Source of the DNA: a virus
Lineage: Duplodnaviria; Heunggongvirae; Uroviricota; Caudoviricetes
Virus record (IMG/VR): IMGVR_UViG_3300042934_000212
Reading direction: 5' to 3' (one strand)
DNA length: 64,000 bases
Shown: positions 3,637-42,153 of the stretch, one piece after another
How positions within the stretch are numbered: the first letter of the stretch is position 1
How the letters are laid out: the number at the start of each line of letters is the position of its first letter
Made by a program: the position numbers and the translations under genes
Notes under the pieces: model-generated
Seen by the model: the letters and a program-made list of their open reading frames with translations, nothing else
The model's database searches: none
Told to the model about the DNA's origin: nothing

Positions 3637-4056
3637 TTACTCAAATCCGATAGAACAGATGCGATCAATCTTATCACCATCGAATGGAACTACATCAATT
3701 GAAATAATTTCAAGACCCGTAACAGTTTCGTCTGGTAGTAATGTAACAGTACCTTTAAGGCTGAACATTAGCTTAACATCACTCGCTAATTCTTTTACCT
3801 TTTTACCGTTGATGGTATCAATAACTTTAACTTCAGCATAAACAGTTTCATCTTGAACATAAAGACTAGTCACTACACCACCGATATTATCAAGATTAAC
3901 TTGAATAGTACGTTCAAGTGGTAGAAACTCTGATAGTTTTGTTGGTTTGTTATTGAATTTTTCGATAGCTGCTAGAGTAGATTCTCTGTCATAGATTCTA
4001 CCGTTTGCATTTGGTTTATCAAGGTAAAGTACTTTACCAGTTATCATAGTATCCAT
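3637..4056 (-). CDS. hypothetical protein
   Basis: 139-aa ORF with predicted beta-rich sequence (ANGRIY motif). No confident family. Confidence 0.4.
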   Translation of the reverse strand: MDTMITGKVLYLDKPNANGRIYDRESTLAAIEKFNNKPTKLSEFLPLERTIQVNLDNIGGVVTSLYVQDETVYAEVKVIDTINGKKVKELASDVKLMFSLKGTVTLLPDETVTGLEIISIDVVPFDGDKIDRICSIGFE

Positions 4057-4057
4057 G

Positions 4058-4300
4058 TTATTCCTTATATTTTGAACACAGTTGTCTTAACTTACTATTC
4101 AATTCTTCCGATGTACTGGCTGTAATTGAACCTATCTTTTTTGATTCAGATATTGTTCCCATTCGCACATCGAATTCATGATTATCAAATGAATCAACAA
4201 ACACGTACTTATTACTTGTGGTTGATTTAAATGAAGCAGAGTTATGTTCAATGCACATATCAAATTTAAACATTATTTTCTCAATTAAAAAGGGGAACAT
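4058..4300 (-). CDS. hypothetical small protein
   Basis: 80-aa ORF immediately downstream of 3637..4056 and upstream of a terminator. Confidence 0.35.
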   Translation of the reverse strand: MFPFLIEKIMFKFDMCIEHNSASFKSTTSNKYVFVDSFDNHEFDVRMGTISESKKIGSITASTSEELNSKLRQLCSKYKE

Positions 4301-4312
4301 AAAGTTCCCCTA
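4284..4312 (-). terminator. intrinsic terminator after phoH
   Basis: GGGGAAC-ataaa-GTTCCCC hairpin (4293-4310) followed on minus strand by a T-run (plus-strand A-run 4286-4292). Lies directly 3' of the phoH stop at 4317. Confidence 0.6.
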
Positions 4313-4316
4313 AGTG

Positions 4317-5744
4317 TTATAGATTTTCTTCTGCAAATGCTGCTAGTGGTGAACGTACTACACCTTCTAGCTCAATAATGCGACAACCTTCCCAATCTTT
4401 AAACTTCTCAGTTACATAAGTTAGACCAGAGTTGGTCGGACTGATAAACTTGTTATCGATCTGAGATAAGTTACCCATGATGATTACTTTACAGTTTTCA
4501 CCTGCACGAGTAAGAATAGTCTTAGCCTGTGCTGGAGTAATGTTCTGGAATTCATCAACAATAAGAATCGTGTTAATGAAACTACGACCACGTACAAAGT
4601 TCAATGCTTTAAACTGGAAGACATTACGTTTCATAATTTCTTCGATTGAGCCTTGTGGGTTCGCATCATCTTTATGCAAGTACTCTAGTGCATCGATTGC
4701 AGCACCACAGAATGGCATAACCTTTTCCATTTCAGAACCTGGTAAGAAACCAATTTCCTCGAATTGAGAATCCTGAGTTTTGGAGAAGATGATACGGTCG
4801 TATTTCTTCTTCTCTAGAATAAGTTCTAGTGAAGTTGCAATAGTAATTAATGTTTTACCTGTACCTGCTGAACCAAGTAGTACTGTAATATGTACGTCCT
4901 TGTCCATGATACTATTAATTGCCATCGCCTGTTGAATGTTCTTGGCTTTAATTCCCCAAACTTTACGAGCTAATGATTTTGATTGACCAACTTCGGTAAA
5001 ACAAATCATATCACGATCATCATCTTGATCTAGTACTGAAGCATAACCTTCAAATACGAATAGACCATCTGCTTCGTCATAGATGTAGTCACCAATACAT
5101 ACATTCGCAGGTAGAAGATGTTTAACATTTTCTTCTGGAATAAAGTGAGTTAGTTTCTGACCATCTTGATTAGCGTAAGAATCATCACCAACTTGTTCCC
5201 AAAAATCGCCATCAATTGCATGGTGACCAGTATGGATTAGGTCGGAATCTTCGATTGTTACATCATGACGATAATCCTGAACTTCAACACCATAAGCTAG
5301 TGCTTTGATACGCATGTTAATATCACGAGTAACAAGTACAGCTTGAGATAGTCGAGCAACTAGAATAATCTTGTCATCTGGAACAGTACTTTTAACTAGA
5401 GTATCAAGCTTATCATCATAGTTTTCACTTAGATGTGCAATTGCCTGTAGTTCTTCAACTGTAAGTACAAATAACTTAGTTTCAGGATTGATGTGAGGGT
5501 GGGATTTAAAAACTTCAACACCAGTAGTTGAAATTTCTTCGTGAGTTGCGTTTTCAAGAATGGTACTGATATTGCGAATTGCAACACGAGCATCACGTGA
5601 AATATCAACTTTACGACTCTTGATGGAATCTAATTCTTCTAGAACTGTGAATGGAAGAATTACATGTGCTCCTTCAAATGCTAGGACTGCATGTGGATCA
5701 CCAAGAATCACGTTTGTGTCAAGAACATATTTTTTCATAAACAT
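4317..5744 (-). CDS. phoH: PhoH-like ATPase with N-terminal PIN domain
   Basis: 475 aa. N-terminal YVLDTNVIL..D PIN-like motif. Walker A GSAGTGKTLIT and PhoH core (ILIVDEFQN, GRSF). PhoH is common in T4-like phages. Confidence 0.85.
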   Translation of the reverse strand: MFMKKYVLDTNVILGDPHAVLAFEGAHVILPFTVLEELDSIKSRKVDISRDARVAIRNISTILENATHEEISTTGVEVFKSHPHINPETKLFVLTVEELQAIAHLSENYDDKLDTLVKSTVPDDKIILVARLSQAVLVTRDINMRIKALAYGVEVQDYRHDVTIEDSDLIHTGHHAIDGDFWEQVGDDSYANQDGQKLTHFIPEENVKHLLPANVCIGDYIYDEADGLFVFEGYASVLDQDDDRDMICFTEVGQSKSLARKVWGIKAKNIQQAMAINSIMDKDVHITVLLGSAGTGKTLITIATSLELILEKKKYDRIIFSKTQDSQFEEIGFLPGSEMEKVMPFCGAAIDALEYLHKDDANPQGSIEEIMKRNVFQFKALNFVRGRSFINTILIVDEFQNITPAQAKTILTRAGENCKVIIMGNLSQIDNKFISPTNSGLTYVTEKFKDWEGCRIIELEGVVRSPLAAFAEENL

Positions 5745-5807
5745 CCTTTTTTGTTTGTGTTAAAACACTTTGTTTTCCTAACAGTATTTAATGTTCCTTA
5801 TAGACTG

Positions 5808-6107
5808 TTAGTTTTGGCTGGGTTCATAGTTTACGTAGCAACGATTACCTTTCGCTTCTTCGTACCAGCATTCCTGATAAACCAATTGACCTAAGCTAAC
5901 TGGTTTATCAGTGGAACCGTACTTTAGTTCGTTGTTTTTGTCAGTATATTGATATGAACATTCATTATCCTTACACTGACCAAGTGCAACAACTTTACCG
6001 ACATTGTACGTAACATTGGTATGTTCACCACTTGGTATTTGCATTAAACCATAAAGCATACCAGTGAATAATGTAGCATACACAACAGACGCAATGATAC
6101 GTTTCAT
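5808..6107 (-). CDS. secreted/periplasmic small protein
   Basis: 99 aa. N-terminal signal peptide MKRIIASVVYATLFTGMLYG. Cysteine pairs suggest disulfides. Confidence 0.45.
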   Translation of the reverse strand: MKRIIASVVYATLFTGMLYGLMQIPSGEHTNVTYNVGKVVALGQCKDNECSYQYTDKNNELKYGSTDKPVSLGQLVYQECWYEEAKGNRCYVNYEPSQN

Positions 6108-6110
6108 TAC

Positions 6111-7016
6111 TTACAAACTCCGAATAAAGTTAAAGGCGTTTTCTAGGTACGAAGTGATATTTTTCGCACCAACTGGATTTGCACTATGAACATTATAGGC
6201 AAATGGTTTAGCAATCTGATTATCCATCATGTATTCCACTAGGAATTTACAGAAGGTATAACCAGTTTCCTCATTTTCATTTTCAGTATCACCCAAATCA
6301 TGATCGAATGATACGAAGTTTGGTAGACCATGTTTCTGTACATAATCTACTGCTTCCCGATATGTCCTGCAAACTACAAACGGCTCATCTGGATAGTACT
6401 TCTCTACTTCACGTAGATCATCCAAGAACATTTTATAACCCTGCTCAGTCTTATCATCACCAACGTAGTTGATTAGCAGTTCTTCATCTTGAACCAATTG
6501 AAGTAGTTCAAGTTTTGCAGTACCAATGAAGTTCTGTTCGATTAGAGTATTCCATCCACATTCTACCTTGTTACCTTTTAGGTAACGGCAGATATGCAAT
6601 AAGTTAACTCCAGCATTTTCTGCTCCGAAATGCTCTCCATTAACTGCATTATTACGAATTTCAAGAAGTTCATCATAAGATACTTCAAGAGAAAACGAAT
6701 GATTGTGTGATGAAGTTGCAATATTTTTATAACTTGCCAATGGCTTCAAACGCTCAATCGGTAAGTTATATGCAATTTCTTCTTGTGCTTCACGCTGTAC
6801 TGCAATCTCCAGACTAGGGTCGTCGGATTCAACCAAACCACCAACTGCACCCATCAGACCATCATAGCGAAGTTCTGAAAGTACTAAACTCACATTCGGA
6901 ATATCGTTATAAGGATAGTTCTTGTATGGTGTGCAGTTCTTTGCATAAATCCAAACAAACACACAATCATAACGTGCAGAACGCTCACCGAACGGAATTG
7001 CTTCGTAGAGATTCAC
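6111..7016 (-). CDS. Nudix hydrolase with C-terminal uncharacterised domain
   Basis: GTG start at 7016-7014 (read from sequence). Nudix box GGLVESDDPSLEIAVQREAQEEIAY fits G-x5-E-x7-REUxEExGU. A ~120-aa C-terminal domain with DHDLGD motif is unassigned. Confidence 0.7.
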   Translation of the reverse strand: MNLYEAIPFGERSARYDCVFVWIYAKNCTPYKNYPYNDIPNVSLVLSELRYDGLMGAVGGLVESDDPSLEIAVQREAQEEIAYNLPIERLKPLASYKNIATSSHNHSFSLEVSYDELLEIRNNAVNGEHFGAENAGVNLLHICRYLKGNKVECGWNTLIEQNFIGTAKLELLQLVQDEELLINYVGDDKTEQGYKMFLDDLREVEKYYPDEPFVVCRTYREAVDYVQKHGLPNFVSFDHDLGDTENENEETGYTFCKFLVEYMMDNQIAKPFAYNVHSANPVGAKNITSYLENAFNFIRSL

Positions 7017-7018
7017 AA

Positions 7019-7798
7019 TTACACCATTTCCTGTACGCCCATACGAGCGGTAATATAATCTTCAAGAGTGCCAAGTACATCAGTCACTGGACTGTAAAGA
7101 TTGTAGTTAAATTTGTCGTCGTTATCATGCGGCTCTGGATTGATGTTCACAGTTTGTGAAGCAGTTGCCAGACCAGCATAGACCGACCACGGAATTACGG
7201 TGTCAGATGAACCGATAATAATAAAGGTATCACGAGCACGAGCACTGTCTAGTACTTTGTAAAGGTCATCGTAAATTGGTTTACGAACACCATCACTGAA
7301 CCAGAATGTCTCACCGAACATAACAATGTTAGGTTTAGAGAAAACTTTAGCTGGTGGTTCGAAGTCAGTATATCCAATCTCATGAACTTCATAGTCAGGA
7401 GAGTTTACTGAGAACGGACTGATTACTTCAGTCAGGCGACCATGTACGTGCATCGCAGTGCCGCCAGCACGTTCAACTAAGTCATCAACGTTAGCGGTGA
7501 TGTGCATTACACGATCATCACCATACAATTGTTGCATACGTGCAATGAACTCGTGACCTGCATTCGGTTCATAATTCTGAAGACCACGACGCATCTTGTT
7601 ATAGAATGCATGTACTGCATCATAGTGAGTAGGGAAGTGTGCAATATTGCAAACAATATCTACACTTACGTTATCCCACAAACCTTCGCCAGCGGCGTCA
7701 CGGAAAGTTGGAATACCAGATTCCTTCGACAGACCAGCACCAGTACAGAAAATCAGTCGCGGTGATTCATCATTATTCAAAAAACTATCGAGATTCAT
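7019..7798 (-). CDS. Sir2-family NAD+-dependent protein deacylase (sirtuin)
   Basis: 259 aa. GAGLSKESGIPTFRD is the canonical sirtuin NAD-binding motif. ATG at 7798-7796 verified. Confidence 0.8.
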   Translation of the reverse strand: MNLDSFLNNDESPRLIFCTGAGLSKESGIPTFRDAAGEGLWDNVSVDIVCNIAHFPTHYDAVHAFYNKMRRGLQNYEPNAGHEFIARMQQLYGDDRVMHITANVDDLVERAGGTAMHVHGRLTEVISPFSVNSPDYEVHEIGYTDFEPPAKVFSKPNIVMFGETFWFSDGVRKPIYDDLYKVLDSARARDTFIIIGSSDTVIPWSVYAGLATASQTVNINPEPHDNDDKFNYNLYSPVTDVLGTLEDYITARMGVQEMV

Positions 7799-7806
7799 TG
7801 TTTACC

Positions 7807-8025
7807 TTAAAGATGTGAAAAGTACAAACGGCAACCACATTTAGGACATGCGGGTTCCCTGATATAATATCCGTCAGTGCCAGGTACTGTACGGGGTGCG
7901 TCCTTAATTATATACGAACCGAAGCACTTAATGCAAGTAACTTCTTTATTTGCGAGTGGATGATCATCAACCCAATCGCCATTATACAGCCATTTTTGAT
8001 GTTCAGTTAAATCGCCGTGCTTCAT
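7807..8025 (-). CDS. small zinc-ribbon protein
   Basis: 72 aa with CIKC...CPKCGC motifs. Confidence 0.4.
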   Translation of the reverse strand: MKHGDLTEHQKWLYNGDWVDDHPLANKEVTCIKCFGSYIIKDAPRTVPGTDGYYIREPACPKCGCRLYFSHL

Positions 8026-8036
8026 ACTCAGCTCAC

Positions 8037-8483
8037 TTAAACAGTAGTTTTATTGACCTCATTCCCAAAAATTAATTCTTCTGGTAATACGCCAAGTTTA
8101 TAGATGAGTTCAATAAGATCTTCATCCGTGTCTTTTGGTTGGTATACAATGCTCATGTGACATTTTAATTTTGGAAACTTATGTGTGTAACCAGCATTTA
8201 CCAATTCTTTATGACGCTGTTCAATCTCTGGTGAATCTAGAAGAAGTACTATTGCTTCCCATTCTCCACCAGGTTTCCCCAACCTTTCAATTCCAGTAAT
8301 CTTCGCTTTATACGTACTATCATTTTTAAGTAGTTTGATTGAAGGGTTACTTTCATCTTGCATAACAGTAACATGAAACTTCGCTGCTGTCAAGCAGTCA
8401 ATGCCTGCTAATTTAAATATTTTGTGTATTTCCTTTGCTTGAACCGTGTCAAGCTTTAGACTGACGTATCCTTTCCCAGCCAT
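8037..8483 (-). CDS. acb1: 2H phosphoesterase, Acb1-like (candidate anti-CBASS cyclic-oligonucleotide nuclease)
   Basis: Two H-x-T/S motifs (FHVTV and CHMSIV) ~72 aa apart define a 2H/LigT-fold phosphoesterase. Length ~148-151 aa and His spacing match what I recall for T4 Acb1 (57B). Second in-frame ATG at 8483 has better AAGGA SD spacing than the ATG at 8492. Confidence 0.5.
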   Translation of the reverse strand: MAGKGYVSLKLDTVQAKEIHKIFKLAGIDCLTAAKFHVTVMQDESNPSIKLLKNDSTYKAKITGIERLGKPGGEWEAIVLLLDSPEIEQRHKELVNAGYTHKFPKLKCHMSIVYQPKDTDEDLIELIYKLGVLPEELIFGNEVNKTTV

Positions 8484-8494
8484 AATGTGCATCC

Positions 8495-8689
8495 TTACAT
8501 AGTTAAAATTAAATAACCCAATATAGATACAAACGTTCCAGCTACTATTCCTAAGAAACTAGCTGCACAAATATAAAGTACTTTTTTACTTTTCTTAGCA
8601 TCTTTGTATTTTACTTTGTATTCGCAATATGTAAGCCAAAGTAAAATGGCATACGCAACGATAGACATAATCAGTATTGTGGTTAACAT
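8495..8689 (-). CDS. small membrane protein
   Basis: 64 aa, two TM helices. Confidence 0.35.
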   Translation of the reverse strand: MLTTILIMSIVAYAILLWLTYCEYKVKYKDAKKSKKVLYICAASFLGIVAGTFVSILGYLILTM

Positions 8690-8708
8690 ATTTAATGCTC
8701 CGTCTAAA

Positions 8709-8735
8709 TTAAAAAGAAGGGGGCTATGCCCCCTA
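8709..8735 (-). terminator. intrinsic terminator after nadV
   Basis: GGGGG-ctatg-CCCCC hairpin (8719-8733) followed on minus strand by TTCTTTTT, 5 nt past the nadV stop. Confidence 0.6.
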
Positions 8736-8739
8736 AAGA

Positions 8740-10224
8740 TTACAAACCTTTGTTTGCACGTTCACGTACTTCATCGAAGGTACTGAGATTCATGATCTCA
8801 CCGTTCACGTACACATCAACCATCATATCACGTAGGAATGGGTTGACTTCTTGTAGTTCAATACGCTCTGCAATAATCTTATGAGTATTAGTACACTCAT
8901 AAGTAGTGACGCGACCACGTAAAGAACGCTTACCAACATCAGTGATTGGATCTTTGAATAGATCTTCCCAAACGCCAGTGTTTAGCTGTTGTGCGGAACC
9001 TTTCATTGCGAAGCTGTAAGTATCACGTCCTTTTTCTGGATGTACTAACTTACCACCCATACCAAATACGATGTTGGTAAGACAAAGCTTTTTAGCTTCC
9101 ATGTTTGCAACAATCTGACGAATACTGTCTTCGTTGATGCCGTCACCCTGAATTACACCAATGAATGAAGGTAATTCTTTATAACCATTTGCGTTTACGG
9201 TAAATCCGAACTTCTCCATCAAAATCTCTACGATTTCAATTGGCATTGTTAGTGGATCACCGCTATCTGGACGAAGAACTAACTTAGCTCCAGGGCAAAG
9301 TGCTGCGATTTCCATAATGGTAGCTTTCAAACGAGTACCAATGTATTCGCGGGTAAAACGATATGCATCATAGGTATCAATCACTACTGATACAATTGGT
9401 GGAACACCAATTGAACCTTTAGCAATATATGCACGTACTTTCATTTCCCACAAACGAACCATCTTAACTGCCATATTAAAGTCGTCGCGTTTGTCTGCGT
9501 CTGAGTTAGAACATGTTGCACTATGCTCACTCGCAGTAACTGAACTCAAATATGCATTAGTTGTGTGGTAGTATTGTTTAATGTAACGGTTAGCACTTAG
9601 ACAATCAGAACCGTTGAACAATGCCGCATGTGCCATACCTGCAATGATTGCAGATTCGAAGCTTGAAGCTCCGCGATCACCGAAGTTATGCAAGTGATAG
9701 TCCACAAAACGAGAGCCAGTATGACGCTCCATTGTATCAGCTAAGAATTCTTTAATGCTACGTGCATTACTAGCAACTGTAGTTGGGAACCAAACACCAC
9801 GCTGAAGCTGAGTTTCAATATAGCTTGCAATTACACAAACACGTGGATCAGTACTGAAAGAGCGTACTAATGGACTGCCAACAGGAACTAACGTACCTTC
9901 TGGAATTGCACGAATATGTAATGGAATTTTACCGCCATGTACTTCTACAATGTGTTCCCAAAAGCCGCGATCAAAATCATCGCCACGTTGTTCAGTTTCT
10001 AGTTGTGCTTCATCAATGTCATCAGTTGTGATTTCAATATCCAAATACTCTTGTAGATAATACTGAATACCCATCATCACGACATGTGTTGCGTACTTAC
10101 TTGGTTTACGTGCAATGATATTTGATTCAAGAGCTACAACACCCTCTTTCATCATAAAACCGTGACCAGTTTTGTACGAATCTACATTTAAGATAAAGTT
10201 TACATTTTTGTTAATTTTGTTCAT
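8740..10224 (-). CDS. nadV: nicotinamide phosphoribosyltransferase (NAMPT/NadV-like)
   Basis: 494 aa. N-terminal NVDSYKTGH motif typical of NAMPT/NAPRT type II PRTases. Size and overall similarity as in KVP40 NadV. ATG at 10224 with GGGAG SD. Confidence 0.85.
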   Translation of the reverse strand: MNKINKNVNFILNVDSYKTGHGFMMKEGVVALESNIIARKPSKYATHVVMMGIQYYLQEYLDIEITTDDIDEAQLETEQRGDDFDRGFWEHIVEVHGGKIPLHIRAIPEGTLVPVGSPLVRSFSTDPRVCVIASYIETQLQRGVWFPTTVASNARSIKEFLADTMERHTGSRFVDYHLHNFGDRGASSFESAIIAGMAHAALFNGSDCLSANRYIKQYYHTTNAYLSSVTASEHSATCSNSDADKRDDFNMAVKMVRLWEMKVRAYIAKGSIGVPPIVSVVIDTYDAYRFTREYIGTRLKATIMEIAALCPGAKLVLRPDSGDPLTMPIEIVEILMEKFGFTVNANGYKELPSFIGVIQGDGINEDSIRQIVANMEAKKLCLTNIVFGMGGKLVHPEKGRDTYSFAMKGSAQQLNTGVWEDLFKDPITDVGKRSLRGRVTTYECTNTHKIIAERIELQEVNPFLRDMMVDVYVNGEIMNLSTFDEVRERANKGL

Positions 10225-10282
10225 ACTAAGACTCCCTTAGATATTAATGTTAATGAAAGCTACATCGCTTTCGGTTTTTGGT

Positions 10283-10804
10283 TTATACCAAATGTGGTAG
10301 AAGAATTAAAGGTATCTTTGCCAATAAGTTACTTGGTTCAAATACATGTTTACCAAAGCTAAAGTACGAGTACATTGCATATGGATTACGCTTTTCTTCT
10401 GCAATTTCTTTCAATGTGAATTCGAATAAGTCACCGAACTCATCAGTTGTTGTGTAGTACAATACATCATCGCGTACCATAATGTACCTTGATTGTGGCT
10501 TAGATATATGTACTGCACCTTGATCTATACAAGCAAAGTACACTTGCACATATCGCATATTTTCATTTACTTCAAGTGCATCATATACACCAAAAGTTCG
10601 TAGTGCAAAGATGCTGTTCTCGTGAGTAGGCTGCTTCTTAATCATTTCAAGGATGTAAGATATTGGCTCTACATTAGTCAAATTACTTGGAATCTTATAT
10701 TCAGATTCTTCAATCTTCTGAATAAATTCAGGTTGATTTGTACTGATATATTTCAATTCATTATAAAATTCGGTTGGTTGACAGAACAACATATTACTTC
10801 TCAC
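10283..10804 (-). CDS. hypothetical protein
   Basis: 173-aa ORF between nadV and natV; no recognisable motif. Confidence 0.45.
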   Translation of the reverse strand: MRSNMLFCQPTEFYNELKYISTNQPEFIQKIEESEYKIPSNLTNVEPISYILEMIKKQPTHENSIFALRTFGVYDALEVNENMRYVQVYFACIDQGAVHISKPQSRYIMVRDDVLYYTTTDEFGDLFEFTLKEIAEEKRNPYAMYSYFSFGKHVFEPSNLLAKIPLILLPHLV

Positions 10805-10834
10805 TTAAAAGGAGTACCGAAGTACTCCAACAAC

Positions 10835-11950
10835 TTATAGAATACCTAAGAAAGTATCGATGATACTTAAATGGTCTTCGAAGAACTTATCACGGTTTTG
10901 AACAAGTTCACCTAGTGGCATCCAGAATGCTTTCTCTGCATCGTCAGCACCTTTTACCTTTGGTAAGGTATTGTCCTGAAGCTGAATATAAGAGCATTTG
11001 GTAATGATACGCCAGCGTTGTGAACGGTTGAAGTCCCCAAATTCCATACTTTCACGGATTGAACCTTCAAGTACTTTCATTGGAACATCAATCTTTGTTT
11101 CTTCTTTCAATTCGCGTAGTGCAGTTTGGATTTGATCTTTATCCTGCCACGCATCAAAGAAGCCGCCTGGTAGTGCATACAAACCTTTGCCTGGGAATGT
11201 GCGACGTTTCACAAGAAGAATGTGACCAGCACTGATTACCATTGCATCACCCGTTAAGAACGGAATGTTGTTGTATGGCAAACGCTCATTCATTTCTGCA
11301 CGATAACGTTGGACGAAGTTGAATTCACCAATTAAGTTTTCGAAAACAGTTGGTTTAGTTTGCATAAACTTCTGAAGGAACTCTTTAGTTTCTTCTGGAA
11401 GTGTTTCAGGAACTTCTTTAGTGCTAAAGAATTGCTGACGCATTGCAGTACTATTAATAGTGATTGGATTTGATTCTGCGTCCTTCTCACGATACTGCGG
11501 TGGGATACCAGCCTGTGATTTCTTTACTTCACCAATAAAATCTTGCTGCCACTGTGGGAAGAAGTTCAGATAGAAAGTACTTTCATCCGCTTCTTTACGA
11601 CAGCCAGTAATAAAGATATTATCACTTGTAGTTACGGATTTAACTTGTTCGTGTACTTCCATCAACCACTTGCTGTTGTTATATACGTAGTCGTGGATCG
11701 GTAGAATATCAATCTGTACCCGACGACCTTTAGCCCATTCATCCTGTGCCAAACGACTAGACATAGCATCCAGTACCTGTTTGCGTTCTGCGAACGTGAA
11801 CGGATTTTTTGAATCACGTGCAAGCTCAGAACTACCAACAAGAATTACCAAACGGTCGGAATTTTCTAATGCGTGTTTAATGGTGGCTTCATGACCTTTG
11901 TGTGCCATCTGAAAACGACCAATATACACATATACTTTTTCTTTACTCAT
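10835..11950 (-). CDS. natV: bifunctional NMN adenylyltransferase / Nudix hydrolase (NadM-Nudix, NatV-like)
   Basis: 371 aa. N-terminal YIGRFQMAHKGH (HxGH nucleotidyltransferase). C-terminal Nudix box ALPGGFFDAWQDKDQIQTALRELKEETKI. Same architecture as KVP40 NatV. Confidence 0.85.
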   Translation of the reverse strand: MSKEKVYVYIGRFQMAHKGHEATIKHALENSDRLVILVGSSELARDSKNPFTFAERKQVLDAMSSRLAQDEWAKGRRVQIDILPIHDYVYNNSKWLMEVHEQVKSVTTSDNIFITGCRKEADESTFYLNFFPQWQQDFIGEVKKSQAGIPPQYREKDAESNPITINSTAMRQQFFSTKEVPETLPEETKEFLQKFMQTKPTVFENLIGEFNFVQRYRAEMNERLPYNNIPFLTGDAMVISAGHILLVKRRTFPGKGLYALPGGFFDAWQDKDQIQTALRELKEETKIDVPMKVLEGSIRESMEFGDFNRSQRWRIITKCSYIQLQDNTLPKVKGADDAEKAFWMPLGELVQNRDKFFEDHLSIIDTFLGIL

Positions 11951-12134
11951 TCTAAGACTCCCTTAGTTATTTGTTATTCAAGGCTACATCACCTTGTATT
12001 CATATTATATCACAAAAAAGTTCAATGTTTCATTTTTTATTTTGTGTATAAACTCTTTAAGTACAGAAATCATACCAGAAGTTTTCAATTTTGCAAGTTC
12101 TTTTTTGTTAAAAAGTAAATATTAATAGAGATGC

Positions 12135-12165
12135 CTCATTTTTAACATCTCAATAAATATATAAT
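12135..12165 (+). promoter_or_regulatory. possible T4-type late promoter for Big_2 gene
   Basis: AATAAATATATAATATAAC upstream of AGGAGactaaaaATG. TAAATA core is one mismatch from T4 late consensus TATAAATA. Intergenic divergent region. Confidence 0.3.
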
Positions 12166-12188
12166 ATAACTTTCTTAGGAGACTAAAA

Positions 12189-13094
12189 ATGGGAAAACCA
12201 ATTGCTGGTCGTAATAAATCCCCATTCGGTGTAGATGGCATTAATGTTGATGCTGCTGTACTAGCCGATGGTACAAAATTAACTAACATTCGTATTAGTA
12301 AACAACGTTCTGCTAACGTATTTGATCTAATGAGTGTTGATGGTCTAACTCTTTATCCATTCATTGAAATCACTGGTGTTGATAAAAATGGTGTAGCTTT
12401 AGATGTAACTGCAACTGGTGCAGAACTTTCGGATAGTATTGCTCCAGGGACTTTCTGTATTAGTGCGGTTGATACAAATGGAGACATTGTTGGATTTACT
12501 GTAAAACTATTAAGTAATAAACTAATTCTTCAAAATGGTAGTGTATTGTTCTTATCTGATTATTCTAGTCAAGGTCAGGTAATTGTTGCAGTATCTTCTG
12601 TTGCAGTATCTCCACTCACTGCTGCTATTCGTGTTGGTGCAACTCAACAACTTACTGCTACTATTGCTCCTGCTGATGCAACCAATAAGTCGGTGACTTG
12701 GATTTCAAGTGCACCTGCAATCGCTACAGTAAGTGCTTCAGGTTTAGTATCTGGCGTTACCAACGGTACTGCTAACGTAACTGTTACCTCAGTAGACGGT
12801 TCGTTCACTAGTGTTTCTGCAATTACTGTAAGTACTGCGGTAACTGGTGTTACAATGACTCCAGATTCCGTAACTCTAAGTATAGCTGGAACAACTACAC
12901 AACAACTAACATCTACCGTAGCTCCTGCTTCAGCATCTGTTAAGACCGTTACTTATGTTTCATCTGATCCGGCGGTTGCTACTGTAAGTGCATCTGGTCT
13001 AGTTACTGCTGTGACTGCTGGCTCTGCAACTATTACTGTTACAACTACTGATGGTTCATTCACTGATACTACGTCAGTTACTGTTACTGCTTAA
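12189..13094 (+). CDS. Ig-like (Big_2) repeat protein, possible capsid/virion decoration protein (Hoc-like)
   Basis: 301 aa, T/S/V-rich. Two repeats of ~80 aa with the Big_2 pattern (VTWISSAPAIATVSASGLVSGVTNGTANVTVTS / VTYVSSDPAVATVSASGLVTAVTAGSATITVTT). Only plus-strand gene in the window. Confidence 0.6.
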   Translation: MGKPIAGRNKSPFGVDGINVDAAVLADGTKLTNIRISKQRSANVFDLMSVDGLTLYPFIEITGVDKNGVALDVTATGAELSDSIAPGTFCISAVDTNGDIVGFTVKLLSNKLILQNGSVLFLSDYSSQGQVIVAVSSVAVSPLTAAIRVGATQQLTATIAPADATNKSVTWISSAPAIATVSASGLVSGVTNGTANVTVTSVDGSFTSVSAITVSTAVTGVTMTPDSVTLSIAGTTTQQLTSTVAPASASVKTVTYVSSDPAVATVSASGLVTAVTAGSATITVTTTDGSFTDTTSVTVTA

Positions 13095-16881: not shown

Positions 16882-17325
16882 TTAAGTTGAAATATCGCCA
16901 GAAATTGTACTGCAATTACCTGCAATCACGCCTGCGTCAACATCACCTGAAACTGTAGTGACATTACCCGCTACATCATTGCTATCTACATCACCGGATG
17001 TGGTTGTAATATTACCGTGCACGTCTTCACATGCTACATCACCGGAAATTGTTTTAATTCCATTGTGAACATTCGCACAGGTAATTTTACCTGCACCTAA
17101 TTCAATTGAATCAACGTCACCATTGATTTCAATATTAATTTGTACGTCATCGGCAAAGGCTGGAACACCATCAACCATTACTACAGTACCGCCATCGGAA
17201 GTTTTCTTGATAACAAGATCCTGTCCTGTGATGTTCTGACCGTTAATAATGATCTGAGTACTCTCACGTGTAACCATTTGCATCAGACGCATCAAGCTTT
17301 CATTACCAGCCATGTTACACCTCAA
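16882..17325 (-). CDS. beta-helical repeat protein (bactofilin-like)
   Basis: 147 aa with ~11-residue repeats SGDVxxxDVxGNxTT, typical of a right-handed beta-helix/bactofilin-like fold. Confidence 0.35.
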   Translation of the reverse strand: MRCNMAGNESLMRLMQMVTRESTQIIINGQNITGQDLVIKKTSDGGTVVMVDGVPAFADDVQINIEINGDVDSIELGAGKITCANVHNGIKTISGDVACEDVHGNITTTSGDVDSNDVAGNVTTVSGDVDAGVIAGNCSTISGDIST

Positions 17326-18109
17326 TAGTTAATGTACTGTCAAAGTTTCGATTCTCTGGTGTACCGTTACTGTTAGTGTAGCCATGTGGATTACATAAGA
17401 CACGAGTTTCGCCAATCATATAATCATGGGAAGAATGTACATGTCCGTGTAACCAGAAGTCTACACCTAAACTGTCAACGAAGTAATCCATATTAGAACA
17501 GTAACAACCGTTCAGATTATCGTCTTTAAAAAACGGGTCAACACTACCAAAGCTAGGAGCGTGGTGCGTCATTACCACCGTTTTAAAATTATCGCACGTT
17601 TCGCGTTGATTGTCAAGACAATTTTGCAAAAAAGTTTTAGTTTTATAATGCAAAAATTCCAGATCATCAGGGTTAACTTTACGCTGCCAGTACTGCTCCG
17701 GTGGTCCAGTCCTGATGTACTTATAATCGTTCATCCCAAGCTGTGCCTGGAGTTTAGTGATTGGGTTCGACTTATCATAGTCAGTCCACAAAGTGCCACC
17801 CAACACAAGAACATCCCCGAACATACGGAAATCATTATCAAGAAAATGAAAGTTACTGAATTCTTCTTCAAACGCTTTAAGTACACGATGTGACTTATTA
17901 AAGTTAGAGAAGTAATATTCATGATTACCACTAACCATGACAACTTCAGCATACTTTTCAGTCATTACCGAAATCATTTCACGGTACTTACCAGTGCGTC
18001 GGCTTTCATGTATATCACCAGGTACAAGAAGAATCGTATCTTTCTGCACTTCCTGATTTTCCATGAATCCGATTTCACCATGTAAATCAGAGATAATTGT
18101 AAATTTCAT
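17315..18109 (-). CDS. metallophosphoesterase (calcineurin-like)
   Basis: 264 aa. DLHG, GDIHE, GNHEY and GHVH motifs in MPE order. Confidence 0.7.
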   Translation of the reverse strand: MKFTIISDLHGEIGFMENQEVQKDTILLVPGDIHESRRTGKYREMISVMTEKYAEVVMVSGNHEYYFSNFNKSHRVLKAFEEEFSNFHFLDNDFRMFGDVLVLGGTLWTDYDKSNPITKLQAQLGMNDYKYIRTGPPEQYWQRKVNPDDLEFLHYKTKTFLQNCLDNQRETCDNFKTVVMTHHAPSFGSVDPFFKDDNLNGCYCSNMDYFVDSLGVDFWLHGHVHSSHDYMIGETRVLCNPHGYTNSNGTPENRNFDSTLTIEV

Positions 18110-21165: not shown

Positions 21166-21636
21166 TTATTTTGCTAGTGGTAGATATGCAATGGATTCAA
21201 ATACACCGAATGCGAACTTGCCATAAATGTCAAAGACTTCTAGCATTAGTGCTTCACGTTCTGGTGTGTCAGGTTTGGTAGACCGGATTAGACCCATATA
21301 TTCAATAGCATCTTCTGGCATAATAATACTGATACTCGTTAGTGCATTATTAATACCTGGCTCATAGAATGGTGCAAATGGTAGATAAACATCAGGATTG
21401 TGTTTAGCCCATACTTCCAAATTTTCTAGTAGTGTTACTAGATTATCATGCATACCACCAGTTAATACGATAGTAGTTTTATGATACTTAGCCCAATCAA
21501 AAATTACACACGCTTTATCAGACGTTGCAGAATTAGTCATTGGATATTTCACGAATAACTCAGCAGTACTGTGTTGTGTTTGAATGCCAGCATGAATACC
21601 AGCAGTGTACATATTTGTAATACTATAAAGACGCAT
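21166..21636 (-). CDS. hypothetical protein
   Basis: 156-aa ORF. Confidence 0.4.
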   Translation of the reverse strand: MRLYSITNMYTAGIHAGIQTQHSTAELFVKYPMTNSATSDKACVIFDWAKYHKTTIVLTGGMHDNLVTLLENLEVWAKHNPDVYLPFAPFYEPGINNALTSISIIMPEDAIEYMGLIRSTKPDTPEREALMLEVFDIYGKFAFGVFESIAYLPLAK

Positions 21637-22415
21637 TATGATTCCTTGATTGTAAATCCATACTCACTACCCCATTCATCTGGAACAATAGTATAGAACT
21701 TTATTAAATGTGTTTCATCATTCATTGTAGCAATTGTGAATTGACCACTTCTGAATTGTGTATCTAGCCAAACTCTATTACCAAATACCAACGGTTCTGT
21801 AACTCCAGTATGACCATGTATTACATAATCAACATCACGAATAACCGCTTCTAGTTTTTCTTTTTGCGGTACTTGATGATCATATACTGCATACTGAATC
21901 GCATCTCGATCCCAAATAAGTTGGTAACGATATTCACCACTATCTTCAGTCCATTGCTTAATTGTTTCCCAATCACTTACGTTTGAGTAGTGTGGGATTC
22001 CTGCATGTGCAATACCTAGTTTGTAACCCCTGTGGTTAACTTCAATTAGATATGGAACATCTTCTAGTAGTTTACAGAAGTGTGTGATACCTGGCTGACC
22101 AATTTCATCTAGAGTTTCTTGACCGCCATTATGTAGCCAGTTCAAATTCCACTCACGACTTGTTTGTGCACGAACCATCATATTCTCATGATTACCTAAA
22201 ACCATATGACGATTTTCTTTTGTAAGGAATTCGAATAACATCTTTGCATTATTCTTTCCACGGTCAACCAAATCACCAACGCTGATTAATACATCATCAT
22301 CAGTAATTCCCAATTCTTTTAATGTCTTTTCGAACAGACCGTAGTTTCCGTGAATATCACCAATTACAAATACACGTTTGTCATCAGGGATATTAAGTAC
22401 TTTTACATAGCTCAT
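21636..22415 (-). CDS. Ser/Thr protein phosphatase (PPP family, lambda-PPase-like)
   Basis: 259 aa. GDIHG, GDLVDRG and GNHE motifs in canonical order. Confidence 0.75.
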   Translation of the reverse strand: MSYVKVLNIPDDKRVFVIGDIHGNYGLFEKTLKELGITDDDVLISVGDLVDRGKNNAKMLFEFLTKENRHMVLGNHENMMVRAQTSREWNLNWLHNGGQETLDEIGQPGITHFCKLLEDVPYLIEVNHRGYKLGIAHAGIPHYSNVSDWETIKQWTEDSGEYRYQLIWDRDAIQYAVYDHQVPQKEKLEAVIRDVDYVIHGHTGVTEPLVFGNRVWLDTQFRSGQFTIATMNDETHLIKFYTIVPDEWGSEYGFTIKES

Positions 22416-27758: not shown

Positions 27759-28682
27759 TTAGAAATTGCCGTCAGCTACTGCAAACACTTTAAGACGCAA
27801 TAGCTTACGCCACATTTCAACAACTTTTTGACGATCATCAAATACTTTTACTACTTTATATTCTTCGCGTACATGATTCATAAACAATTCGTACTTAACA
27901 ATATCGTCAGGACGATTATCATCAGCACCACGCATGTAGATATGATCGTATGGTACACCATACTTCTGTAACCACTTCTCAGTATCTTCTTTACAGGTTT
28001 CGTGACGACCACTCATGATGATTACTTTGCGACCGATGTAATCACTTTCAGCTTTCACGGAAAGAATTACTTCTTCGTCTGGATCATCAAGAAGAACTTT
28101 GTTTTCTTCATACGGACCACGTTTACCTTCCATATGAGCTAACGTACCATCAATATCTACAATGATTGCTTCTTCTAAACCAGCATCATAAGTGATTTCT
28201 GGTAAGGTACTGAAATAGTATTTCTCAGCCATACCATCAATTACTTCTTCTGGAACTGATTTTTCACGAAGTAAGTTACGTTCTTTACACTGCTTAACAT
28301 AATCTTTGATAGCAAAGAATTCATGAACGAAAGTTTTACCTTTCTTAAATTCTTCAAAGAAGTTTTGTTCTTTATAAGTGTAACCATGTTCACGAGCGAA
28401 CGCTTTCCACTTAGTACGAACCGCAGGGTTCAAGTTGGTATCACCAACTACAATGTTCCAATTGTTCAAAGCTGCATGTGTTGCTGCACTGTACTGAGCG
28501 TCTTGCACGTACTGTTCGTTGTCTTTGCGGAACTTATAGTTGCTGTGTGAACCAGCCATAGTCTGACGAATATCATCTAAGTTTACTACTACAGTCTTAG
28601 AACGTGAAGACTTCACATGTTCATTAGCCCATGTGGTTTTACCACAACCAGGCAGACCGACTGTTACTGTTAATACTGGCAT
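27759..28682 (-). CDS. pseT: polynucleotide 5'-kinase / 3'-phosphatase
   Basis: 307 aa. Walker A GLPGCGKTTWA, then DDIRQ, and a HAD-phosphatase motif (IVDIDGTLA). Alignable by eye to T4 PseT (301 aa) over the full length. Confidence 0.85.
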   Translation of the reverse strand: MPVLTVTVGLPGCGKTTWANEHVKSSRSKTVVVNLDDIRQTMAGSHSNYKFRKDNEQYVQDAQYSAATHAALNNWNIVVGDTNLNPAVRTKWKAFAREHGYTYKEQNFFEEFKKGKTFVHEFFAIKDYVKQCKERNLLREKSVPEEVIDGMAEKYYFSTLPEITYDAGLEEAIIVDIDGTLAHMEGKRGPYEENKVLLDDPDEEVILSVKAESDYIGRKVIIMSGRHETCKEDTEKWLQKYGVPYDHIYMRGADDNRPDDIVKYELFMNHVREEYKVVKVFDDRQKVVEMWRKLLRLKVFAVADGNF

Positions 28683-29387: not shown

Positions 29388-30536
29388 TTAAACTTCAAAT
29401 TCCTTAAGAACTTCTTTCATGTATTTCAACATGATTGCGTTATAATCTACGGGCTTAGAATTATAAAGCAAGAACGCAATACCTGGCATTCCAAGTTCAT
29501 TTGGTAGTACCTTCTGAACTTCTAATGCGTATTCTTTTCGTTCTAAATTTTTATTCTTATTGTAAAATGCTTCACTGTCATTTACTAGCTTATTATAGCA
29601 CGAAAATACAAGCTGTTCCATTTTTTCAATCTTTTTGATTGAGTACAAATCTGTACTAAACATCTGCTTTAGATCATCAGATGCTTTGTTGATGATGCAC
29701 TCATATAAGCGAGAATCAACATTAATGCTGTCCTTTGTAAAGTGCAATGCACTATACCAGTCAGTCTTAACCTTACAAATTCGTCCATCTTTTAGGATAA
29801 TGATATAACCCTCAATATCTTGCATCTTACGTACTGCTTCAATGCTTTCAATTAAAGTTTCTTTCATTGGGAAAGTACTATCAATATCACCGAATTTAGC
29901 CGACACAGAACGCTTGTACAAGCCTGGGAATGCTTCTTTAAGGCGTTCACCCACTAACATTTCACCCGTCTGACGATGGCGTACATTAAGCACAGTAAGG
30001 CCATCTTCTTGATATGGAAGTACGATACGATACTCAGGTGAAGTGTATTCCATGTTTACTGTAAAACCTAGAATCTCTGCCTGATAAATCTCTTCATAGA
30101 AATCTTTGTCTTTATGAAGCATTGCCGTACTGTTAATTGCATGATCAGAATGTAATGATGCCTGTGACTTAGTACGAACTTTATAATCAGCATCCATGAA
30201 GGTACTGATAATAGAGCCATCTAGTTTATCCATTACTACTGCGATTTCAGAACTTAAAGTACTTTTATCAAACATAGTAAATGGATTCTCGTATGCATTG
30301 AAAAACTTCAATGGTGGACGAGCGACAATAGTAACATAGTTTCCATTCTCATCGATCTTGAACATGCTACCACGACCTTCTAATGCACTTGGCTCTAGAA
30401 AATCACTGTAACTCGCAAGACGGTAAGAGAAGATACGATATGTACCACCACCAGCAGAAGTGAAGTCTTTCCATGAGAAAGCATCGTTATTTGCTGTTAG
30501 TGTCATTAGTTCATTAAAGATAGTTTCAGTACTCAT
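29388..30536 (-). CDS. rnlA: RNA ligase 1 (T4 gene 63-like)
   Basis: 382 aa. GGGTYRIFSYRLASYSDFL.P.ALE.RG.MF and DKLDGS (KxDG nucleotidyltransferase motif) match T4 Rnl1 (G.[31 protein letters not shown]). Confidence 0.85.
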   Translation of the reverse strand: MSTETIFNELMTLTANNDAFSWKDFTSAGGGTYRIFSYRLASYSDFLEPSALEGRGSMFKIDENGNYVTIVARPPLKFFNAYENPFTMFDKSTLSSEIAVVMDKLDGSIISTFMDADYKVRTKSQASLHSDHAINSTAMLHKDKDFYEEIYQAEILGFTVNMEYTSPEYRIVLPYQEDGLTVLNVRHRQTGEMLVGERLKEAFPGLYKRSVSAKFGDIDSTFPMKETLIESIEAVRKMQDIEGYIIILKDGRICKVKTDWYSALHFTKDSINVDSRLYECIINKASDDLKQMFSTDLYSIKKIEKMEQLVFSCYNKLVNDSEAFYNKNKNLERKEYALEVQKVLPNELGMPGIAFLLYNSKPVDYNAIMLKYMKEVLKEFEV

Positions 30537-41676: not shown

Positions 41677-42153
41677 TTACTCCAAGTTTGGGTTTTTAAG
41701 TGTTAGACTTTCAATGTCTTCAGCGGTGATCATAACATGTGGTTCACCTTCTGTAAAGAGAAAATCATGATAACTTTCACTAATAAAGAAATTATCCAGT
41801 ACATAACCCTTTGACAAAAACATTAGTACATGCTCGTCGTCCGGTTTAGTATAGGTGTTACGTAATTTTTCCACATCTGATTGTGGTGTATCGCCTGGGT
41901 TGTTTCTGATTACACATTCATTGTACTCAGAATTCATTGTCATTGGCGTTGCCATTACCCAGCGTTTAGAGCTGTTTACTGTTACTGCGAAACTATTACA
42001 TTTTGGATTGTTGAAAAATTCGTACATTGTTGCACTGCATAGAAAAAGGCATTGAATAATGTCCTTAATACTAAACATTAAATCGTGTACTTCAAAGGCG
42101 TCAGTAGTGATCACATCATCAATCGGCCCATTCTCTTTGTGAATAATATTCAT
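41677..42153 (-). CDS. hypothetical protein
   Basis: 158-aa ORF. Confidence 0.4.
   Translation of the reverse strand: MNIIHKENGPIDDVITTDAFEVHDLMFSIKDIIQCLFLCSATMYEFFNNPKCNSFAVTVNSSKRWVMATPMTMNSEYNECVIRNNPGDTPQSDVEKLRNTYTKPDDEHVLMFLSKGYVLDNFFISESYHDFLFTEGEPHVMITAEDIESLTLKNPNLE

Follow-up and report, generated by a model that had tools for sequence, protein, structure and literature searches.

A jumbo phage locus of NAD+ and nucleotide enzymes that probably comprises three separately inherited modules, and a Shine-Dalgarno hairpin shared by natV and nadV

We analyzed a stretch of 64,000 nucleotides (here called the window) of the Caudoviricetes record IMGVR_UViG_3300042934_000212, in which the genes from natV to that of a PIN-PhoH protein encode enzymes related to NAD+ and nucleotide metabolism, namely, the NAD+ salvage pair NadV and NatV, a 2H phosphodiesterase of the Acb1 family, a sirtuin, and a Nudix domain fused to a cREC domain. 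A previous sequence-only reading had interpreted five of these genes as a single enlarged anti-abortive-infection module. Our data point to a different organization: the region probably consists of three separately inherited modules, i.e., the NadV-NatV pair, the Acb1-family protein, and the sirtuin with the Nudix-cREC protein, which share an NAD+/nucleotide theme but do not constitute one system. In addition, natV and nadV are preceded by an identical hairpin that presents the Shine-Dalgarno (SD) sequence in its loop. The NadV-NatV pathway (NARP2), Acb1, and the sirtuin/2H/Nudix-cREC neighborhood have all been published already, and the gene content as such adds little; the added value of the analysis lies in the modular reading and in the leader hairpin, which is identical for both genes within a genome and covaries across phages.

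Modular inheritance of the natV-to-PhoH region

The window derives from a Rak2/GAP32-like jumbo myovirus; its DNA is 78-83% identical to that of Pectobacterium phage CBB, Cronobacter phage GAP32, Serratia phage BF, and the Erwinia pEa_SNUABM phages, and its proteins are 99-100% identical to those of a 355-kb IMG/VR contig. All genes between 4.3 and 12.0 kb of the window lie on the minus strand, and the order of transcription is from natV to PIN-PhoH. The minus-strand coordinates given previously for five open reading frames (ORFs) were exact, and all five domain calls and quoted motifs proved right according to Pfam, NCBIfam, and PDB matches and to motif positions. The five identities thus hold, but the genes are not simply five neighbors, since the block comprises eight genes, with three small or orphan genes inside.

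Several observations contradict the view of a single enlarged module. (i) The phyletic ranges of the components differ. Among 50,697 phage records, the sirtuin matched 998 (Escherichia, 374; Salmonella, 287), mostly from T5-like, rV5-like, and phi92-like phages; NatV matched 461, only 10 of them from Escherichia; and the 2H protein matched 169, mostly from Vibrio, Erwinia, and Aeromonas jumbo phages. (ii) The same gene order is present in Serratia phage BF, Pectobacterium phage CBB, phage GAP32, Yersinia phage fHe-Yen9-04, and metagenomic relatives (sirtuin 45-47% identical), and the syntenic relative L011 keeps natV, nadV, Sir2, Nudix, cREC, and PhoH and has no Acb1/2H gene. Conversely, Salmonella phage Arash and Klebsiella phage N1M2 have the 2H gene on its own. 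(iii) Vibrio phage 2.275.O shares the backbone, consisting of a phosphoesterase, ClpP, dCMP deaminase, natV (50% identity), nadV (53%), and PIN-PhoH (44%), and its natV-nadV-PhoH locus contains no homolog of the sirtuin, Nudix, cREC, 2H, or orphan proteins. NARP2 and PhoH can thus be regarded as a backbone and the cassette between them as an insertion into a variable slot, where CBB has an additional gene and the relative L009 an HNH gene. (iv) A GC-rich terminator hairpin with a U-run (8718..8734, minus strand; -13.3 kcal/mol) lies 6 nt after the nadV stop codon and was found, with compensatory stem changes, in 7 of 7 relatives checked. A terminator-like hairpin with a U-run also directly follows natV (10811..10828, minus strand; -11.0 kcal/mol, z-score of -4.05); it is kept in closer relatives but not in L009 and L011. 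(v) The sirtuin belongs to a distinct phage clade, and its neighbors in other lineages are RNA repair genes (see below).

Some points weigh against the modular reading. The distance from the nadV terminator to the start codon that follows is only ~28 nt; expression of the downstream genes may therefore rely on read-through from nadV and be regulated jointly with nadV. Across the whole enterobacterial Rak2-like clade, the three modules have stayed adjacent, which fits functional coupling too. Lastly, the biochemical activities and phenotypes attributed to the locus are predictions from sequence, with functions transferred from homologs of 19-40% identity.

We consider it unlikely that the genes from natV to the Nudix gene form one integrated, multi-pronged counter-defense island, in which NARP2 would refill NAD+, Acb1 would destroy the signals of CBASS (antiphage systems that signal through cyclic oligonucleotides), and the sirtuin and Nudix-cREC would act on NAD+-derived signals or products, such as glycocyclic ADP-ribose (gcADPR), histidine-linked ADP-ribose (His-ADPR), ADP-ribose (ADPR), and ADP-ribosylated targets. 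Such an island would agree with the common strand, tight spacing, and clade-wide synteny of the genes and with the variation of the nadV-PhoH slot among relatives, which resembles an accessory or anti-defense hot spot. ADP-ribose conjugates and nucleotide caps are substrates of NUDT16-type Nudix enzymes, an activity that would suit this role given the NUDT16 homology of the Nudix domain, as would the cleavage of cyclic phosphates and cyclic ADPR derivatives that has been predicted for cREC (PMC7824862). However, the sirtuin would spend NAD+, contrary to refilling it; its partners in three other phage lineages are RNA-end-healing or ligation enzymes; NatV is missing from most phages that have the sirtuin; L011 does without Acb1; the terminator behind nadV is conserved; and neither PADLOC nor other anti-defense evidence was obtained for the sirtuin or Nudix-cREC. 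If the three modules are separate, as we favor, their adjacency makes metabolic sense without a shared anti-defense role, because the products of the sirtuin would feed NadV and the Nudix domains: the sirtuin module would consume NAD+ and release nicotinamide and ADP-ribose derivatives, NadV would recycle the nicotinamide, and the Nudix domains would degrade the rest. The reading as three modules that can be gained and lost separately matters for the design of deletion and plating experiments as well as for the adjacency-based mining of anti-defense genes.

A leader hairpin shared by natV and nadV

The same 15-nt sequence, CTAAGGGAGTCTTAG, is located immediately upstream of the start codons of natV (11952-11966, minus strand) and nadV (10226-10240, minus strand) and is found nowhere else in the window, even when two mismatches are allowed (0.06 occurrences expected). 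As RNA it reads CUAAG-GGAGU-CUUAG and forms a 5-bp stem (CUAAG/CUUAG) that has the SD sequence GGAGU as its loop and ends 1 nt before the AUG. In both leaders this hairpin is the second of two. The natV leader cassette (11946..11998, minus strand) is composed of hairpin 1 (CAAGGU/GCCUUG, loop GAUGUA), a spacer, and hairpin 2, and the nadV cassette (10220..10274, minus strand) of a different hairpin 1 (GAAAGC/GCUUUC) with the same GAUGUA loop, a spacer, and the identical hairpin 2. The minimum free energies are -10.8 kcal/mol (z-score of -2.27) for the natV leader and -11.7 kcal/mol for the nadV leader. A scan of the window with the covariance model R2 retrieved only these two sites, with 65.3 bits for natV and 60.1 bits for nadV and 16.9 bits for the next best site, and within the 64 kb a perfect 5-bp stem enclosing a GGAGN loop occurs only before natV and nadV. 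The idea that hairpins with an SD loop are a general feature of the ribosome-binding sites of this phage was therefore rejected. Under a looser test, one other such hairpin was seen in the window, GUUCA-AGGAG-UGAAC, situated 2 nt before the ATG at position 42153; the ORF behind it (41677-42153, minus strand) encodes a 158-aa product that matches no Pfam family.

The hairpin is not restricted to the window. In every close relative, both genes are preceded by the exact 15-mer, and so are those of Vibrio phage 2.275.O, which lie 4 kb from each other. A scan of IMG/VR yielded 24 matches to the 15-mer with a start codon behind them and an ORF whose product matched a window protein in BLAST, and all 24 preceded natV or nadV; among them were a nadV (54% identity) from a contig of RaK2 size and a natV (34% identity) from a contig of 172 kb. 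At the other matches, ORFs were short or absent. In more distant phages, the stem sequences differ and the structure is the same, as illustrated by the natV leaders of RB43 (AACGU-GGAGC-ACGUU) and of the KVP40-like D484 (UAUAG-GGAGC-CUAUA), both directly before the AUG. To the statistics contributed 80 diverse viral contigs collected with a NatV alignment, the counts referring to distinct leaders; besides the window, the hairpin was seen in L018, L035, L045, L048, L049, and L051-L130. A strict test (at least 5 Watson-Crick pairs, a 4- to 7-nt loop containing the SD sequence, and 0-3 nt between the end of the 3' arm and the start codon) was positive for 41/64 natV and 33/43 nadV leaders, compared with 8/307 other ORFs of the same contigs (Fisher p = 5e-46). 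When leaders were anchored on the SD sequence and examined blind to pairing, the five inner pairs formed in 61/86 leaders versus 8/140 controls (p = 7e-26). The leaders contained 29 different 5' arms, and the most frequent loops were GGAGU (27), GGAAC (10), GGAUU (10), and GGAGC (7); the loop is almost always GGA-N-N, and 20 of the 61 loops do not contain GGAG. At bacterial nadM and nadV genes, the hairpin is much rarer and still enriched, being present in 25/71 nadM leaders versus 13/502 other ORFs under a looser test that allowed GU pairs and a longer gap. Among Rak2-like phages, the cassette duplicated before natV and nadV measures ~53 nt; the SD hairpin forms its second half, and hairpin 1 has 6 bp and a G(A/U)UGUA loop. 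In the alignment of this two-hairpin cassette (A5), 100% of the cells pair, four pairs are changed on both sides, and none of 500 shuffled alignments matched the covariation.

Known regulatory elements were also considered. Searches against Rfam 15, with E values of up to 1, of window positions 4000-12600 and of the leaders of 16 phage and bacterial loci gave no match, NAD+ riboswitches included, which led us to reject the idea of a riboswitch or another known RNA between the genes. NrtR has a palindromic operator of 21 bp, in which the arms are conserved and the core is GT-N7-AC (PMC2330246). An NrtR or NadR DNA operator was rejected because the element is 15 nt long, has 5-bp arms that vary and a loop that is conserved, and lies at a fixed 0-3 nt from the AUG.

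The SD-in-loop hairpin of natV and nadV appears to be undescribed so far. Each NARP2 gene has its own leader, displaying the SD sequence in a loop beside the AUG, and a terminator hairpin behind it, and the shared leader may set or control the translation of both NAD+ enzymes coordinately. For natV, a strong sigma70-like promoter with an extended -10 box is predicted upstream of the cassette (TGATATAAT; 12004..12033, minus strand) from a consensus match only (10/12 with TG); the arrangement TTGAAAC-N17-TATAAT is kept in the natV leaders of relatives. There is close to an even chance that the hairpin has no dedicated regulator and represents a structural means of tuning, most likely lowering or equalizing, the initiation of translation for two enzymes that are costly, and that it is passed on along with their genes. 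With 5-6 bp, the AU-rich stems are short, and the z-scores of the whole leaders (-10.8 and -11.7 kcal/mol) are about -2; the stem sequence is free to vary, as seen in the 29 distinct arms; a weaker version exists at some bacterial nadM genes; and NARP2 has been reported to be toxic or costly and to consume phosphoribosyl pyrophosphate (PRPP) (bioRxiv 10.1101/2024.02.11.579819), all of which is consistent with simple tuning. Three points speak against it: phages with proteins of only 34-54% identity share the whole 15 nt including the loop; each genome has two identical copies, which suggests sequence-specific recognition; and the loop is almost always GGA-N-N. We are more doubtful about a second possibility, in which the SD-loop hairpin (GGAGU, GGAAC, or GGAUU loop) would be a dedicated translational control element of nadV and natV across very different phages, weaker in bacterial nadM, that is read by a specific factor. 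Candidate readers are the host CsrA/RsmA, a RegB-type nuclease, or NadV or NatV themselves, sensing NAD+ or ADP-ribose, and the reported toxicity and PRPP consumption of NARP2 make a brake on this pathway plausible. Should the hairpin be a genuine operator, phage NAD+ reconstitution would have its first known point of control. Such an operator would explain how a pathway reported to be toxic is restrained, would allow feedback on the drain of this pathway on PRPP, and would make it simple to find NARP2 genes and their regulon by sequence.

Some further elements were noted near these leaders. Just upstream of hairpin 1 of nadV (window positions 10254-10300, minus strand), there is a palindrome, UUUGGU-AUAA-ACCAAA, that is conserved in relatives and holds a possible extended -10 box (TGGTATAAA); it may be a promoter or an RNA structure. 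Genes of 108 and 118 aa located just upstream of natV on two viral contigs (L089 985-1341 and L094 713-1039) carry an SD-loop hairpin as well, e.g., UGAAA-GGAUU-UUUCA, and similar loci are present in L101, L110, L111, L112, L120, L121, and L125. These small genes match no Pfam family and may belong to the same regulon as natV and nadV.

The NAD+ salvage pair NadV and NatV

The names NadV and NatV reportedly stem from Lee & Miller. The product of nadV (8740..10224, minus strand; 494 aa) matches the Pfam families NAMPT_N (PF18127) and NAPRTase (PF04095) and the NCBIfam model NF006629 (421 bits versus a cutoff of 405), and it retrieves NAMPT structures from the PDB at 8.6e-79 (human NAMPT at ~1e-68). 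The motifs DSYK, HNFG, GSD, and RPDSGD start at residues 15, 179, 205, and 318, respectively, and, as read from the alignment, the positions of H247 and D219 of human NAMPT correspond to the His within HNFG (179) and the Asp within GSD (205). The product of natV (10835..11950, minus strand; 371 aa) is composed of Pfam domains CTP_transf_like and NUDIX and aligns over its full length with the NadM-Nudix protein of Synechocystis (2QJO; 2.5e-64). The NCBIfam model for bifunctional nicotinamide mononucleotide adenylyltransferase (NMNAT)/Nudix proteins matches it at full length (2.1e-85), yet the score remains under the equivalog cutoffs (287 versus 397). NatV contains HKGH at residue 17, corresponding to HxGH, and RELKEE at residue 279, corresponding to RExxEE. 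These data bear out the earlier proposal that the pair corresponds to the two-enzyme route from nicotinamide to NAD+ of the KVP40 type, which has now been published as NARP2 (bioRxiv 10.1101/2024.02.11.579819).

By analogy, NadV would convert nicotinamide and PRPP into NMN, and NatV would adenylate NMN to NAD+, with its Nudix domain cleaving ADP-ribose. The NARP2 of KVP40 abolishes type I Thoeris and DSR2 defense and raises NAD+ (Osterman et al., bioRxiv 10.1101/2024.02.11.579819), and the pair encoded here may likewise rebuild NAD+ that is lost either to NADase defenses of the host or to the NAD+ consumers of the phage itself. Elsewhere, the two genes occur in other contexts. In Vibrio phage 2.275.O (L018 13483-14496), a NadR-like gene (cytidylyltransferase-like and AAA_28 kinase domains) and several membrane protein genes are placed between natV and nadV, so that this phage is predicted to have a larger NAD+ synthesis cluster. 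The nadV homolog of another viral contig, on which several tRNA genes are located upstream of natV, is split by a group I intron (L097 3674-3958; Rfam RF00028, 61 bits, E value of 4e-13).

The Acb1-family 2H protein

The 151-aa predicted 2H phosphodiesterase (8037..8492, minus strand) belongs to the Acb1 family, as had been suggested from its size and histidine spacing. It matches Pfam Acb1 (PF23474) with 57.8 bits versus a cutoff of 27 (E value of 1.4e-15), compared with an E value of only 0.0028 for 2_5_RNA_ligase2, and in searches of the PDB by sequence its best solved relatives are Acb1 entries (9Q2G; 6.6e-5). An AlphaFold2 (AF2) model with a predicted local distance difference test (pLDDT) score of 90.6 was used in a Foldseek search, which retrieved the BCSR5 entries 9Q2G and 9Q2Y (1.7e-8) and the Acb1 of FBB1 (7T26 and 7T27; ~1e-6, with 1.1e-6 for 7T26) within a range of 1.7e-8 to 2e-6, whereas LigT, Usb1, and CPDases followed at 4.5e-4 or worse. 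H40-V-T and H112-M-S are invariant in 16 homologs, and a profile of these homologs aligned with gp57B of T4 (hhalign; 88% probability, E value of 3e-6), placing H40 and H112 on H44 and H113 of the T4 protein. UniRef names the orthologs of GAP32, CBB, and BF "Anti-CBASS protein Acb1."

The 2H enzyme thus most likely degrades cyclic oligonucleotide immune signals, as judged from homology and the predicted fold. In the Acb1 of T4 and FBB1, residues Y12, W74, and F107 stack on the bases, and a C-terminal lid contributes W147 (Hobbs et al. 2022, PMC9117128). Y9, W78, and F106 of the 2H protein are placed comparably to the T4 aromatic residues, with W78 outside the alignment column of the T4 Trp. 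The protein stops before the W147 lid, and F142 and E145 are invariant instead; since it lacks the C-terminal Trp lid, its substrate could differ from that of Acb1, a point that weighs against a simple transfer of function.

The CBB ortholog, CBB_118 (78% identical; L002 6162-6608), was detected in purified CBB virions by mass spectrometry, with 7 peptides and 60% coverage (PMC5259590, Table 4), and the 2H homolog of Edwardsiella phage pEt-SU is annotated as structural. This suggests that the 2H enzyme is packaged and injected; given the virion association of the CBB ortholog, it may enter with the DNA and act before phage gene expression.

The sirtuin and the Nudix-cREC protein

The 259-aa sirtuin (7019..7798, minus strand) matches Pfam SIR2 at 8.5e-22 and CobB structures at 1.6e-27 over its full length. 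Its motifs comprise GAGLS at residue 20, TFRD at 31, HVHG at 117 (catalytic H119), GSS at 196, and NINP at 218. The Cys4 zinc site (CxxC...CxxC), present in 2/3 cellular CobBs, was absent from 8/8 phage sirtuins aligned, namely, four from Rak2-like phages or jumbo contigs and one each of the rV5-, T5-, phi92-, and KVP40-like types, and scores drop from 225 bits within the clade to 98 bits for cellular sequences. The absence of the zinc cysteines indicates that the sirtuin represents a distinct zinc-less phage clade and is not a CobB ortholog.

The gene downstream (6111..7016, minus strand; 301 aa) had been called a Nudix hydrolase on account of its Nudix box; the box is there, but the NUDT16-like nature of the domain (residues ~18-181) and the cREC domain fused to it (~194-293) had been missed. 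Matches were obtained with Pfam Nudt16-like (1.7e-17), NUDIX (1.8e-6), and cREC_REC (PF20274; 5.4e-23, residues 194-293) and with human NUDT16 structures (1e-11). The Nudix box REAQEE is at residue 75, and the cREC motifs FLDD and DHDLG are at residues 197 and 238. In the more distant relatives L009-L011, Nudix and cREC are two adjacent genes.

The neighborhood of sirtuin (AQW88637.1), 2H, Nudix-cREC, and PIN genes in Serratia phage BF has been described and read as NAD+-utilizing RNA repair with a KptA/Tpt1-like sirtuin, not as counter-defense (Iyer, Burroughs, Anantharaman & Aravind 2022, Viruses 14:1977, PMC9503650, section 3.7.3), and cREC had been defined and predicted to open cyclic phosphates and cyclic ADPR derivatives (PMC7824862). 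According to the published prediction, the sirtuin would act on RNA 2'-phosphates as KptA/Tpt1 does, ADP-ribosylating them with NAD+ and removing them, and cREC and Nudix would dispose of the ADP-ribose cyclic phosphate formed as a by-product. The gene contexts of the sirtuin clade elsewhere involve RNA repair enzymes, not NARP2. In the rV5-like FV3, RNA ligase 1, cREC, and the sirtuin follow each other in order, with an AAA_33 P-loop kinase (polynucleotide kinase-like) beside them; in the T5-like SP01, the sirtuin is followed by a fragment of a HAD_SAK_2 "Swiss-army-knife" RNA repair phosphatase; and in the KVP40-like D480 no natV or nadV was found within 6 kb of the sirtuin, though KVP40-like phages encode NatV. 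The assignment of the sirtuin and the Nudix protein to counter-defense is not supported.

We tentatively regard the sirtuin and Nudix-cREC as an NAD+-consuming unit that would process nucleic acids or ADP-ribose, although we give this assignment somewhat less than an even chance. The two proteins may instead clear ADP-ribose-derived immune signals, modify proteins, or, through the NUDT16-like domain, remove NAD caps. RNA ligase and end-healing genes are not adjacent to the sirtuin of the window; a T4-type PNKP (AAA_33 and HAD_PNKP; 27759-28682) and a T4-type RNA ligase 1 (Rnl1; 29388-30536) are encoded ~20 kb from the cassette on the same minus strand and make up a classical pair for tRNA repair. 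As PNKP and Rnl1 heal 2',3'-cyclic ends without leaving a 2'-phosphate, a Tpt1-like step is not obviously needed, which counts against the RNA repair role. Experimental studies of phage sirtuins, of cREC, or of the phosphodiesterase of BCSR5 were looked for in the literature, and none was found.

It seems improbable that the sirtuin is a host-takeover deacylase or ADP-ribosyltransferase that mimics CobB on host or phage proteins, with Nudix-cREC clearing O-acyl-ADP-ribose or ADP-ribose and no RNA repair involved. Its best full-length matches are indeed the housekeeping deacylases CobB, Sir2Af, and SIRT5, and the NAD+ pocket, the catalytic His, and the FGE motif are kept. However, the zinc module that shapes the acyl-peptide cleft is devoid of all four cysteines throughout the phage clade, the NCBIfam score is 115 versus equivalog cutoffs of 243 or more, and the linkage to RNA ligase, cREC, kinase, and HAD phosphatase genes is repeated.

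A phage zinc-binding protein of 72 aa with four cysteines (CIKC...CPKC; Pfam Phage_zn_bind_2, PF23903, 6e-22; 7807..8025, minus strand) is encoded 8 nt upstream of the sirtuin that lacks the zinc cysteines, and is a candidate for providing this sirtuin with a zinc module in trans; it is absent from L011. Two calcineurin-like metallophosphoesterases are encoded on the strand of the cassette at window positions 17315-18109 and 21636-22415 (minus), and phosphoesterases of this kind are occasional partners of sirtuin systems in other phages (Iyer et al. 2022, PMC9503650).

Other features of the locus

Between natV and nadV lies the gene of a 173-aa orphan protein (10283..10804, minus strand), the true start of which is probably M5 at 10792. 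It was assigned to no family in Pfam or NCBIfam and to no PHROG function, it has only 7-8 homologs, all restricted to the clade, and its AF2 model is poor (pLDDT of 57.7). At the same position, L009 and L011 have genes of 174 and 184 aa, respectively, without detectable homology to the orphan. A small membrane protein of 64 aa (PHROG 35006; 8495..8689, minus strand) is encoded upstream of the 2H gene with a gap of 2 nt, and a membrane protein of 99 aa (PHROG 14661; 5808..6107, minus strand), kept in all relatives that have the cassette, follows Nudix-cREC with a gap of 3 nt. Gaps amount to 2-11 nt from the 64-aa gene to the 99-aa gene and to 42-63 nt around nadV, the orphan, and PhoH; the short gaps make it probable that the former group is co-translated. 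The cassette is flanked by the PIN-PhoH gene (Pfam PIN_4 and PhoH; 4317..5744, minus strand), behind which a terminator scan detected a terminator-like hairpin (4291-4311). The candidate role of PIN-PhoH as a specific partner of the sirtuin is weakened by its occurrence, at the same backbone position, in the natV-nadV-PhoH locus of Vibrio phage 2.275.O, which is free of the cassette. No tRNA genes were found in the 64-kb window.

Comparison with known systems

With the NARP2 of KVP40, the pair described here shares the two enzyme families, the NMNAT-Nudix fusion, and the closeness of the genes in one genome, and a KVP40-like NatV aligns with NatV of the window over its full length with ~32% identity. 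Unlike in KVP40, natV and nadV are split here by a clade-specific orphan, each gene has its own leader, and the sirtuin/Acb1 cassette adjoins; NadV and NatV are only 30-40% identical to the proteins that have been tested.

The targets of CsrA/RsmA, the operator of the MS2 coat protein, and the GGAG sites of T4 RegB are short hairpins that cover the ribosome-binding site and expose GGA (in most cases GGAG) in the loop. The hairpin of the window resembles these CsrA/RsmA targets and phage operators in being short, in covering the ribosome-binding site, and in displaying GGA in its loop. It differs from CsrA/RsmA targets in that the Rak2-type leader lacks a second GGA site, in that it is tied to two gene families rather than to a host regulon, in that a third of the loops (20/61) do not contain GGAG, and in that its reader is only a candidate.

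The 2H protein has the compact 2H fold of ~150 aa with two HxT/S motifs that characterizes Acb1 (gp57B of T4, FBB1 7T26/7T27, and the phosphodiesterase 9Q2G of Burkholderia phage BCSR5), whereas it is only 19% identical to Acb1 of T4, does not conserve the W147 lid, is encoded near a sirtuin, and has a virion protein as its CBB ortholog. The sirtuin shares with bacterial CobB and class III sirtuins the Rossmann NAD+ site (GAGxS), the catalytic His, and an alignment over the full length; it differs in the lack of the Cys4 zinc site and, as read from the alignment, in the replacement of Arg95 of the Tyr/Arg pair by which CobB recognizes the acyl group. As a whole, the cassette is orthologous to the BF locus, with the sirtuin, 2H, Nudix-cREC fusion, and PIN proteins in the same order. 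Iyer et al. (2022) left that locus unconnected to the adjacent NARP2 genes, and our data go beyond their description in that PIN-PhoH was found without the cassette and the 2H gene proved dispensable, being absent from L011.

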